Below, piece by piece: positions 17,277 through 29,748 of a DNA stretch of 64,000 bases; the stretch's first letter is position 1; the number at the start of each line of letters is the position of its first letter. The stretch comes from Dictyostelium discoideum (taxonomy: Eukaryota), in assembly GCA_000004695.1 (NCBI GenBank), contig CM000153.2, positions 3,552,001 to 3,616,000 on the forward strand, read 5' to 3'. Position numbers and translations under genes: made by a program. Under the pieces are notes generated by a model. That model was not told where the DNA came from, made no database searches, and was given only the letters and a program-made list of their open reading frames with translations.

Positions 17277-20200
17277 TTAATCTTTTAAAACTGTAATAAT
17301 TGGTTTCTTTAATAAATGTCTAATTGGGGAAACTACAGAAATGATTGAGACAATTAAAGATGAAATGAAGAGTATAGGAATTAATTCCCATTGAATTGAA
17401 AATGGTATAATTTGTTGATTCATAACTGATTGTTCTAATAGAATTGTATAGCTAATGAAAAGACCAATAATAATACCAATTATACAACTACCAAATGAAA
17501 GTGTAAAAGCTTCAAAAATATAGATTTTATAGATTTTAAAATTTGATAGACCAATTGATCTTAGAATACCAATTTCTTTTGATTGATTTTTAATATTTGT
17601 AAACATTGATGAAATTAATGAAAATGATGATATAATCATTGAGAGTACTGTTGCAAAATCAAAGAATAATGAATTTAATTTATCTGAACTGTTTGATGAA
17701 TCTTTATATCTAATTATATAAGGACCTGTTGATTTTAGATTAGATAAACATTTTTGACTAATTTTTAATCTTAATGAATCAATTAAATCATAATCTAATG
17801 ATTTTGGTTTAATTAAAATTACACTAACTGGTATATTCCTAACCGAGTCGATATTACCACCTGATAACCCAACATATGCTGGAAATGAGGCTATTACACT
17901 TTGAGTTGCACCTTTATCTGGAATCTCAGATACACTAAATGTACCTGCAGTTTTTAAATATGCTAATGGTTTCATTAAATAACGACCCATCCAATTTAAT
18001 GTTACATTTTGTTGTTGATTTTTGCCAGATGGATCAATTTTTGTATAATTATTAATTTCAATATAATTTGATAATAAATATTCATCACTACCACCTTCTT
18101 GATCAAGATACAATAATTTCTTTTGAGATTGAGTTAATATTAATTTATTCATTGAATCTTTACTATATAAAATCGTTGATAAATCAGTCATATCACCATT
18201 TTGATTAAAATCAACATCTTTATCAGTTTTTAAATTTTCTGAAACTGATGAAACTTGAAAATAATCTTCCATTAATTCACTGAAATAAGTTGGACCAACT
18301 GCAAATAATGATGATTTTAAAATTCTAGTTCTACCAAGATCAGAAACCGTTGATTTCTTATTATCAGGTTGAGAAAACTCACTAAACTCCATTGATCTTA
18401 ATGAATAACTATCTAAACCATTATTATCATCCATTAAACCATCTAAACATTGGGTAATATGTGATAAATCTTCTCTAAGTAAAAATGTTTCTGTTTCAAT
18501 CTTTAAAAGTGAACCATAGTATTGTTTTCTAGAAGCATTTGCAGTTTCAACTTGAACTAAATATAAACAACTAATTGTAATAATTAAAGATACAGAAATA
18601 CCAAACATAAACATTGTACCTTTATTCTTTTTCTTGTGAGAAATTAAATTTTTATATAAAATTCTTCTAATAATATATTTTGCACCAGGATCGATTAAAG
18701 TAATAAGGTAAACTAATGTTTTTGAAATGATTAAATGGAAATTCATCATTAAGAAAATTGCTGATATTAAAACTAAAATTAACAATCCAAATAATAATGC
18801 TAATAATGAACTGACATCACCGGATAATAATAATTTTGGTAATAAAAAACATACCACTATACCAAAAGCACTAATTGATAAACCAATCAATGATACAGAC
18901 TTTTTAAATTCTGCATCTTTTGAACCTTTATCAATTGTTGTAATTTGATGTGATGATATTTTTGATCTACTAGTATCCAATTGTTGATTTAATGAAAAAC
19001 TTAATGCTTTTCTAATTGGTAATATCAATGATACCATTGGTATTAGAAAACCAAACAAAATTGAAAATAGAATTGAATTTACTGTTAAATACTTTGAAAT
19101 ATCTGCTGAATTTGATATACTCTTTAATTGATCTACGACTATAACTAAAAAGATTTGTGAAATTATTAAACCTAATATAATTGATGGTATTGTGAAAATT
19201 ATTGTTTTTGAAACTATTAGCTCGATGATGAAACTAAATTTAGCACCTAACATTCTAAATACACCGTTATTAAATGTCATTGAATCCACATCAATCATTA
19301 ATGTTGTATAAATTAAAAGAATTGATAATAAAAGGAATACAAAAACTATAATATTTAATAATTGACCTAAATTATTTGAAACATCTTTGCTCTTGTATAA
19401 TTCAGTCATTACTGGTGTTGAAATATCAACTCTACCAACACCAATTTTGTAAATTAATTTTGAGCAATAATCACCCACACGTTGTAAAGTTTTATCTAAA
19501 TCTGTACCATAATACATTGATAATCTTGGTGATGGAAATTTCATAACTATATATTCGACATATTCTTTTAAATTTCTATTTTTCATTAAATCTACATTCC
19601 ATGTTGGATTTACTTGTTCAACCATTGAATCATAGAATGAGTCAATATCAATTAATATAGATGGTATTGTTTCACCCAATTCAAAACCTAATTCATAACC
19701 TAATTCGTATGGATTCTCTGTATTATTGAAAAATCCATTAACTTTTAATTTTGTTATTATATATGGTGATTTTTCAATTTGAGTTGTTGAAATCATTGAA
19801 TCTGTTAATAAAGTTGATAATAATTTAACTGCTGGTACTTTTAAAAAAATTTCATCACCAATCTTTAATTCTATTCTTTTAGCCAATGATTCTATCATTA
19901 AACATGTACCCTTTGGTTGTGATCCATAACCAAATGTTGATTTTATACCCATATCATTCTCTTTTTTAAAATCTAGTAATTGGAAACCCATATATACATG
20001 TTCTCCATCACCACCACATCTATTAATAAAACAAGTACTCTCTGTGCAATTTAAATCACTACCATTTGAAAAGTACCTTGCTTCAATATTATTTTCAACA
20101 ATGTTTTCACAATAATTTACGGGATATCCAAATGCATCTATCATATGAAATCTTGGTGAATTATAATCAAAATTATTAAAACCACTACTATCACCACCAA

Positions 20201-20685
20201 TAAATAAACTATTGAAACTATTAGCTTCATTCAATTCTATTAATTTTTCAAAATTTAAAGTTGCATCATTTAAAAGTTGATCAATTAATGTATAATTTAA
20301 TCTGACATCAATAATTTCACCTAAATCTATTGATTGTTGTTTGCCTGATATTATTAAATCAATACCATAGGCATCAGAATCTGCTTTACTTAAAAATATT
20401 AATGATATATTTGATAATACTGATAAACCAGTTGCAACTAAAATTACTACTAAAAAACATGATATAAAACCAATACTATAATTCAATTTACTCCTTTTAA
20501 TACCATTTATTGAATATTTAATTATTGAAAACCATTCTTCAGTAATTTTAAAAAATCCAATATTTCTTAAAATTAATTTAATCTTTTTTAAAATTATTTT
20601 AATCCTTTTTAAAATTGATTTAAAAAATTCTAAAATTATTATTATTATTTTTATTATTATTATTTTAAATTTTTTTATATATAAA

Positions 20686-20716
<31 letters not shown>

Positions 20717-21032
20717 CATCTTCATCATTATTATTATTATTATTATCATTTGATGATTTTTTAAAATCTGATAATTCAACTTGACTATATTCACCAACAC
20801 TATCTCTCCAATTATTATAATATTTTTTGTCACTAATTAAAATTGTATCATTTTCATTATTTTCACTCCTTTTCATTGCACTTGTTAATATTGAATTATT
20901 ATTGTTGAGGTTGTTTTTATCCTCATCGTCATCATCGTCGTTATTATTATTGTTATTGTTTTCTTCATAATTATTTACACTATCTTCATTATCGTTAGCA
21001 CTTATTCCAAAATAATTATCATTTTGAACCAT
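17277..21032 (-). CDS. MacB/FtsX-type double-permease-like membrane protein, paralog C; 1251 aa.
   Basis: A full-length ORF with the same architecture and high identity to A and B. The N-terminal acidic, Asn-rich cytosolic region shares KKYYNNWRDSVGE with paralog A (KKFYNKWRESVGE). Confidence 0.8.
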
Positions 21033-22095: not shown

Positions 22096-22611
22096 CTATA
22101 AGTTATTATTACTATTAAATCCTTTTTTCTTTAAAATTAATTGTGGTGAATTTAAAATATCGATAACTTTTTGTTTGATGTTATTCATTGATTCGCTATC
22201 AATTGAGGTATTACTATTACTATTATCTATTTCATTAACACTTTTTTCAGGTGAAAATAATAATTCTGTTAATGATAAACCATTATTACCATTTTGTTGT
22301 TGTTGTTGTTGTTGTTCTGTTTCACTATTATTATCTTTGTTGTTTATTAATGTTGGTACTGAAGTTACATTAATTGCATCAATATCTAAACAATGTTGAA
22401 GGAATTCTTCCATTGACATTTTTCTTATTGAATTTGGTAAATTTAATAACTCTGATTGTAAATTCTTTTTCAATAATTCACTTAACATCTTTGATTCATT
22501 TCTTAAACTTTCAATATGTGTTTCAACTAAATTTAATTTAAAACAAAAAAAAATAAAAATAAAAAAAAAAATTAATTTATTTATTTATCAACACATTAAC
22601 AAATATTAAAG

Positions 22612-22648
<37 letters not shown>

Positions 22649-22724
22649 GATTATTATTTTTACCCTCTTTATCAAAGTGTTCCAAACCAAATTTTAATAT
22701 TTCATATGATTCATTATTTGACAT
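22096..22724 (-). CDS. Borealin-like protein, a candidate chromosomal passenger complex subunit (Nbl1/Borealin N-terminal domain); about 172 aa. Exons about 22724-22661 and 22526-22096, with a gtaaaa...tttag intron about 22660-22527.
   Basis: The ORF-track entry 22096..22488 is extended upstream in frame to the acceptor at 22527-22528. A 64-nt first exon, ATG TCA AAT AAT GAA TCA TAT GAA ATA TTA AAA TTT GGT TTG GAA CAC TTT GAT AAA GAG G|gtaaaa, joins in phase (G|TT). The product MSNNESYEILKFGLEHFDKEVETHIESLRNESKMLSELLKKNLQSELLNLPNSIRKMSMEEFLQ... aligns with human Borealin [51 protein letters not shown]. Confidence 0.6.
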
Positions 22725-23374: not shown

Positions 23375-23629
23375 TTAAGAGATGGTTTTTTGTTCTTCAG
23401 TGGGTTGTTCATGTTTTGAAATTATATGAGTGTTTAATCTTTGTTTTGATGATAAAATTTTTCCACAATCTAAACAATTAAAGCCAGTTTCCACCTGTTT
23501 TGAATGTTCTAAACCACATGCTTCTTTACAAAGAATATGTTTTGTATTTAAATGTTTATCCAAATCTCTATTATTTTTACACCTTTTTCTGCAACTTGTA
23601 TGTCCACAAATATATTCTTTTTTTACCAT
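23375..23629 (-). CDS. Small C2H2-type zinc-finger protein, 84 aa, single exon.
   Basis: MVKKEYICGHTSCRKRCKNNRDLDKHLNTKHILCKEACGLEHSKQVETGFNCLDCGKILSSKQRLNTHIISKH contains two C-x2-4-C...H-x3-5-H units. Confidence 0.45.
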   Translation of the reverse strand: MVKKEYICGHTSCRKRCKNNRDLDKHLNTKHILCKEACGLEHSKQVETGFNCLDCGKILSSKQRLNTHIISKHEQPTEEQKTIS

Positions 23630-24200: not shown

Positions 24201-24243
<43 letters not shown>

Positions 24244-24295
24244 GGTAAAAAATGTCGTTGATATTTTTTTTTTTTTTTTTTTTTTTAAAAAAAAA

Positions 24296-25069
24296 ATGAT
24301 TAAAATATCTTTTACGTTAATACCATTATTTTTATTGTTATTACTATTTTTAAATGATTGTATTGGTTTATATATTTATATGAAACCATTTACAAATAAT
24401 AAATGTAGTGGTGAATCAGAAGGAATTGGATATATTTTTAATCAAAATGAAGATTCATGTATTATTTTATCAAACTCTACAAACCCAATAAATTCTAGTT
24501 TAGAAATCAATGTATTTGGAGAGATTGGATCATTTCAAATTTTTAATTCTTTAAATTGTAAAATCGATTCAAATGATCCAAAACCAATTTCATTTGCATT
24601 TAAAAATAATCAATGTGTTAATTTACCAACAATGTTTAATTATAATTTTAATTCAACAACAACAATAACAACAGAATCACCAATGAATTCATTTAATACT
24701 GATAATGTTAATCAATATTTTCAAATGAACTTAATTTCGTCTCTGAATGAAATTAATCAAATAATTGATCAAGTATATGGTGTAAAGAAATTTCAATATC
24801 AATTATCAAATCAATGTTCAAATTCAAACTTTCAATTAATTCAATTTTTTACAAATAATTTTAATATAACTACTGAAATTAATAATAATAATAATAATAG
24901 TAATAATACTACAATAACCTCAAGCATATTTTGTAATTCCCAAAAAGAACCAACTATTCAGCAATGTCGAAATGGTGCTGACAACCAATGTATATTTGAA
25001 TCTTTATTTTTGCCTTGTTCTGAAATAATTGAAAATGATATTAGTTACAATTTAGTACAAACTTGTTAA
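24296..25069 (+). CDS. Secreted Cys-containing Asn/Thr-rich protein of about 257 aa, with weak resemblance to the 1333-2032 product.
   Basis: The ORF-track entry 24242..25069 begins in a translated poly-T tract. The plausible start is the M of MIKISFTLIPLFLLLLLFLNDCIG (signal peptide). Its motif NNKCSGESEGIGYIFNQNEDSCIIL resembles NNDQCGGEPYNIITKNICSSKGC of the 1333 gene. Confidence 0.45.
   Translation: MIKISFTLIPLFLLLLLFLNDCIGLYIYMKPFTNNKCSGESEGIGYIFNQNEDSCIILSNSTNPINSSLEINVFGEIGSFQIFNSLNCKIDSNDPKPISFAFKNNQCVNLPTMFNYNFNSTTTITTESPMNSFNTDNVNQYFQMNLISSLNEINQIIDQVYGVKKFQYQLSNQCSNSNFQLIQFFTNNFNITTEINNNNNNSNNTTITSSIFCNSQKEPTIQQCRNGADNQCIFESLFLPCSEIIENDISYNLVQTC

Positions 25070-25439: not shown

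Positions 25440-29748
<4,309 letters not shown>

Follow-up and report, generated by a model that had tools for sequence, protein, structure and literature searches.

A minus-strand locus of Dictyostelium discoideum is, with a probability of approximately 0.9, the Borealin gene DDB_G0285671, which would be composed of two exons joined at a donor located at 22664/22663 and would encode a product of 163 aa. All positions refer to the window, the 64,000-nucleotide stretch of D. discoideum DNA that was analysed. Both comparative and HMM evidence indicate that the correct donor is G/GTAAAA (a slash within a sequence marks the splice site), and the 21-residue Asn-rich insert of the AX4 reference protein is probably spurious. 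The identity of the gene as Borealin is already known from public annotation and from a published orthologue set; the new point is that, as judged from sequence, the splice site proposed in a preliminary description of this locus fits better than that of the reference gene model.

The locus lies in AT-rich DNA of the Dictyostelium type. Joining 22724..22664 to 22526..22096 on the minus strand yields 163 codons followed by TAG, with the frame open throughout, and the spliced product reads MSNNESYEILKFGLEHFDKEVETHIESLRNESKMLSELLKKNLQSELLNLPNSIRKMSMEEFLQHC...NSNNNL. The splice signals of this short model are a donor, G/GTAAAA, and an acceptor, TTTAG/TT, which form the sole GT..AG pair at that site that leaves the frame open. 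The preliminary description had started from a 130-aa ORF beginning at an internal Met, which is present on the minus strand at 22096..22488, while the upstream ATG at 22724 starts a short ORF. The short first exon that it had added was found to be real, with the open frame and the gtaaaa/tttag signals described, but its length is 61 nt and not 64 nt or 21 codons, and the junction that had been placed at 22661/22526 lies 3 nt away, at 22664/22526. The N-terminal residues that had been quoted are exactly present in the spliced product (...ILKFGLEHFDKEVETHIESLRNESKMLSELL...LLNLPNSIRKMSMEEFL). Neither the 163-aa nor the 130-aa product had an identical entry in a collection of 15 billion proteins. 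The features of the locus and of its neighbourhood are listed in Table 1.

Table 1. Positions of the putative Borealin gene, its predicted elements and neighbouring genes in the window
Feature	Position	Strand	Remarks
Exon 1	22664..22724	-	61 nt (20 codons + 1 base); encodes MSNNESYEILKFGLEHFDKE
Intron, phase 1	22527..22663	-	137 nt, GTAAAA...TTTAG
(AAT)11 microsatellite inside intron	22614..22646	-	
Exon 2	22096..22526	-	431 nt with TAG stop; residues 21-163
Borealin N-terminal helix coding region, PF10444	22396..22685	-	Residues 14-64; the intron splits the region after residue 20
Alternative GT donor T/GTTAAT of the AX4 model	22599..22600	-	Exon 1 then reaches 22601; adds GKNNNHNNNNNNNNNNNTFNI
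Dictyostelid motif 1, SLTELLFSPEK	22243..22275	-	Residues 105-115
Dictyostelid motif 2, IKQKVIDILNSPQLILKKK	22123..22179	-	Residues 137-155; predicted C-terminal helix pair
FtsX-like permease ORF	17277..21032	-	1251 aa; PF02687, two stretches, E=3e-30
C2H2 zinc-finger ORF	23375..23629	-	84 aa; two matches, zf-C2H2_jaz and zf-C2H2; just upstream of the Borealin gene
CfaA_B_C family gene	24242..25069	+	
1109-aa ORF	26419..29748	+	Gamma-secretase-activating protein C-terminal domain, PF14959 GSAP-16, E=1.7e-23

The preliminary description had regarded the gene as unannotated, which was not the case, since the gene is already listed as DDB_G0285671 of D. discoideum AX4 with PF10444 precomputed. 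A search of 5.8 billion proteins retrieved the entry 'hypothetical protein DDB_G0285671 [Dictyostelium discoideum AX4]' (P0002, 184 aa), together with orthologues of other D. discoideum strains, D. dimigraforme and D. citrinum. The exon-coded residues of P0002 are identical to those of the window product except for the junction codon, which encodes V21 in the window product and F in P0002, and the extra segment of P0002, GKNNNHNNNNNNNNNNNTFNI, corresponds to read-through of exon 1 in the window with an identical Asn count, so that at this locus the window is AX4 or cannot be told apart from it. Dataset EV1 of van Hooff et al. 2017 (EMBO Rep, PMC5579357) also includes the 184-aa sequence, under the name Dictyostelium_discoideum_DDIS009016_Borealin, and orthologues of Polysphondylium violaceum, D. 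purpureum and Tieghemostelium lacteum carry the UniRef name 'Borealin N-terminal domain-containing protein'. A literature search for DDB_G0285671 by name found no paper, and among the papers in the searched literature that mention both Borealin and Dictyostelium, none included an experimental study of the Dictyostelium protein.

In the window, the acceptor can be combined with three in-frame GT donors, at +37, at +61 (the donor of the preliminary description) and at +124 (T/GTTAAT, the donor of the AX4 model). PF10444 matched the short model (+61) with 45.2 bits over HMM positions 6-56 and the AX4 model (+124) with 26.6 bits over HMM positions 14-56, while the bare 130-aa ORF scored 18.5 bits over HMM positions 31-56, which is below threshold. 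The gene was also compared among six Dictyostelium genomes, comprising the window and five others (L001-L005) from three strains of the D. discoideum complex, D. dimigraforme and D. citrinum. All six have kept the +61 donor and the acceptor, the donors reading GTAAAA, GTAATA, GTAATT or GTATAT. In the DNA alignment, conservation spanned exon 1, stopped exactly at the GT and restarted at TTTAG/TTGAAACA; the orthologous introns, which range from 110 to 278 nt, could not be aligned in sequence between species, but both of their splice sites were conserved. An intron in phase 1 also interrupts the homologous codon in D. purpureum and T. lacteum, immediately behind the (D/E)-x-E of the FDxEVE motif. 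Both the conservation of the donor and the HMM scores support the short first exon as the right splice, as the preliminary description had suggested.

In the AX4 reference model, a weaker donor located 63 nt further on is used, by which the intronic (AAT)n repeat would be translated as a 21-aa Asn-rich insert in the helix. Because the repeat unit has 3 nt, the repeat stays 'in frame', so that gene predictors are tempted to call poly-Asn. The number of repeat units (alignment A5) was 11 in the window, few in the other D. discoideum strains and about 60 in D. citrinum.

In a Pfam search of the spliced product (HMMER with bias correction), the check that had been proposed in the preliminary description, Nbl1_Borealin_N (PF10444) was matched with a score well above its gathering score of 24.4 (E=7e-12), and the alignment was ungapped, with residues 14-64 placed on HMM positions 6-56 of 57. 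The PF10444 threshold was also passed by five orthologues (P0001, P0005, P0007, P0008 and P0009), and no second D. discoideum PF10444 protein was found among the matches of the protein database searches. The best sequence matches in PDB were seven distinct Borealin chains, including 2qfa_B of the CPC core structure, in which residues 10-58 of human Borealin pair with residues 13-61 of the query without gaps. The helix carries Borealin signatures, FDxEVE near its start and LPxxIRxM near its end. These results agree with the earlier proposals that the N-terminus is similar to the Survivin/INCENP-binding helix of Borealin and that a CPC subunit of the Borealin family is encoded here.

An AF2 monomer model predicted a helix over residues 3-48 (pLDDT 79-95) and, behind it, short helices at residues 52-55 and 59-66, a disordered middle and two short C-terminal helices, with a mean pLDDT of 61.8 for the whole model. 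The predicted long N-terminal helix with a short helical turn-back is as in the three-helix bundle of the CPC. A Foldseek search of this model against PDB gave 0 matches, as is expected for a lone helix in a mostly disordered model. By homology with the human CPC core, the N-terminal helix (residues ~3-66) would form a three-helix bundle together with a Survivin-type helix and the N-terminus of INCENP, and this bundle would tether Aurora kinase at centromeres and later at the spindle midzone. Published work has described DdINCENP and Aurora as behaving as passengers in Dictyostelium.

Alternative explanations were considered for both the gene model and the assignment to the Borealin family. 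According to the AX4 model (184 aa, with exon 1 extending to 22601 and a 74-nt intron), the longer transcript would be the true one or would exist beside the shorter, with the Asn-rich insert forming a genuine low-complexity loop of a kind typical of Dictyostelium. Many Dictyostelium proteins contain runs of Asn, as does the neighbouring 1251-aa ORF; the annotators of two genomes chose this model, and its T/GTTAAT donor is frame-compatible and usable in L003 as well as in the window. In the other four genomes (L001, L002, L004 and L005), however, this donor is missing or lies behind a stop that is reached by read-through of exon 1, and the D. dimigraforme intron contains poly-T, without AAT repeats, at the place of the insert, where some of the other genomes have the AAT repeat. 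The donor itself reads GTT, whereas all six orthologous introns start with GTA, and the insert breaks up the helix at a cost of approximately 19 bits of the PF10444 score and the loss of HMM positions 6-13. The AX4 model, also as the source of a minor isoform in AX4, is considered improbable on these grounds, and the short model is preferred.

With regard to the protein family, a different CPC subunit and a fortuitous match have to be weighed against Borealin. Survivin/BORI homologues of Amoebozoa were described as helix-only and lacking the phospho-histone reader (Komaki et al. 2022), and the Dictyostelium protein, which is short and has one recognisable helix and no other known domain, resembles that description; it is nevertheless very improbable that it is such a Survivin/BORI-type subunit, given that its helix is N-terminal as in Borealin, that it contains the Borealin motifs FD-x-EVE and LP-x-x-IR-x-M-x-x-x-F, and that it matches PF10444 at the score given above. 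In the comparison of Borealin with Survivin, which was made with the Survivin chains in PDB, neither the single sequence nor a profile built from three orthologues matched any of these chains at E ≤ 10, and the sole CPC chains matched were those of Borealin; the same research group had also placed the protein under Borealin in 2017. The text of Komaki et al. 2022 gave no support for regarding the Borealin and Survivin helices as paralogous. The charged and Leu-rich character of the helix, together with single-sequence PDB E-values of only about 0.03, might suggest a generic coiled-coil or low-complexity protein that matches Borealin by composition alone. Against an independent Borealin HMM, constructed from 20 non-dictyostelid Borealin N-termini of the van Hooff et al. 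2017 supplement, residues 1-70 scored 50.3 bits, while 2000 composition-preserving shuffles had a mean of 1.0, an sd of 1.7 and a maximum of 11.5. This result, the bias-corrected Pfam E-value and the ungapped, end-to-end alignment with conserved signature residues make a compositional origin hardly credible, and coiled-coil composition, which the preliminary description had named as a possible source of the similarity, was ruled out. Assignment to Borealin is preferred over both alternatives.

The C-terminal half of the protein is mostly disordered and lacks the canonical dimerisation domain, and its two short motifs are conserved only in dictyostelids. No match to PF10512, the Borealin C-terminal dimerisation domain, was found at E ≤ 10 in the 163-aa protein, while metazoan-type relatives from the same search (P0010 and P0012) have this domain. 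When the C-terminal halves of the dictyostelid proteins were compared by hhalign with 13 canonical C-domains, the probability was 0.2%, and an interpretation of the C-terminal motifs as a degenerate form of the PF10512 'GE..[ILM]S..GSPL' motif and terminal helix was rejected on this basis. Motif 1, SLxELLx[S/T]P, has an invariant [S/T]-P, which is part of SPEK in D. discoideum and of TPER in D. purpureum and represents a conserved candidate site for proline-directed (CDK-type) phosphorylation. This motif is invariant in alignment A1, and L8, L11, L12 and P15 are invariant in alignment A3, which includes Dictyostelium, Polysphondylium violaceum and Tieghemostelium. Motif 2, IKQKVIDILNSPQL, covers residues 137-155 as a predicted C-terminal helix and is conserved among dictyostelids; in this region AF2 predicted helices at residues 137-148 and 151-159, with a pLDDT of about 78 over residues 141-150. 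The Borealin entry of P. pallidum has a weaker, related tail, DIKKKMIELLNAP.

These motifs may have a role in proline-directed phosphorylation and in targeting. Since Dictyostelium Survivin is reported to be helix-only and without a phospho-histone reader, the tail motifs could be a centromere-targeting module. Targeting of the CPC in Dictyostelium was flagged as an open question by Komaki et al. 2022. It is possible, though doubtful, that in dictyostelid Borealins SLxELLx[S/T]P and the helix IKQKVIxILNSPQL replace the C-terminal dimerisation/centromere-targeting domain and could bring the CPC to centromeres.

The Dictyostelium protein shares with human Borealin/Dasra-B (CDCA8, PDB 2QFA chain B) an N-terminal helix of approximately 50 residues with FDxEVE and LPxx[IL]RxM and the PF10444 domain. 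Human Borealin, however, has 280 aa, a central region phosphorylated by Cdk1 and a C-terminal dimerisation domain (PF10512), whereas the Dictyostelium protein has 163 aa and PF10512 was undetected in it. Short Borealins are not unusual in Amoebozoa; that of Acanthamoeba castellanii (ACAS006343, 117 aa) is also short, with the PF10444 helix as its sole recognisable element. In S. cerevisiae, Nbl1 has approximately 73 aa and is helix-only. Unlike Nbl1 and the Acanthamoeba Borealin, the dictyostelid protein has about 100 more C-terminal residues, which include the two conserved motifs absent from those proteins.

Models of the orthologous genes in other dictyostelids were also inspected. The orthologue annotated in D. 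citrinum (GCA_054859325.1), P0006 with 131 aa, begins only at the internal Met and has no exon 1. This exon is present at L002 2624..2684 with an identical protein sequence, and the intron that follows has 278 nt, nearly all of them (AAT)n; the spliced product has 164 aa. In D. purpureum, P0008 (220 aa; L006 1501..2465, GL871008.1) contains an additional 5' exon encoding MKIECIITL, which looks spurious because an in-frame ATG (MSRYSTDSS...) at approximately L006 1753 gives the homologous start. The P. pallidum entry (Polysphondylium_pallidum_PPAL000986_Borealin; PMC5579357, Dataset EV1) is a 939-aa model that is Borealin-like only over its last ~120 residues, while the upstream ~820 residues, RasGEF-like by eye, look like a separate gene fused by prediction. 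Eight extra residues of this model, INIQYVVV, coincide precisely with the position of the conserved intron, a sign that the model may be mis-spliced.

The Borealin orthologues in the other strains have the same flanking genes, and the FtsX permease lies next to Borealin on the downstream side at every dictyostelid locus compared, including that of T. lacteum (L007). The 84-aa zinc-finger ORF is possibly a single exon belonging to a larger gene. No tRNA genes were found within the window.

In conclusion, the practical value of these results lies in the correction of a gene model in a model organism, because in the reference protein the helix that is expected to bind INCENP and Survivin carries a probably spurious insert. 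The correction is relevant wherever a GFP fusion or a knock-in is to be designed or the structure of the Dictyostelium CPC is to be modelled. In addition, the dictyostelid tail motifs offer a modest clue to the way in which centromeres may be found by a CPC whose Survivin is helix-only.
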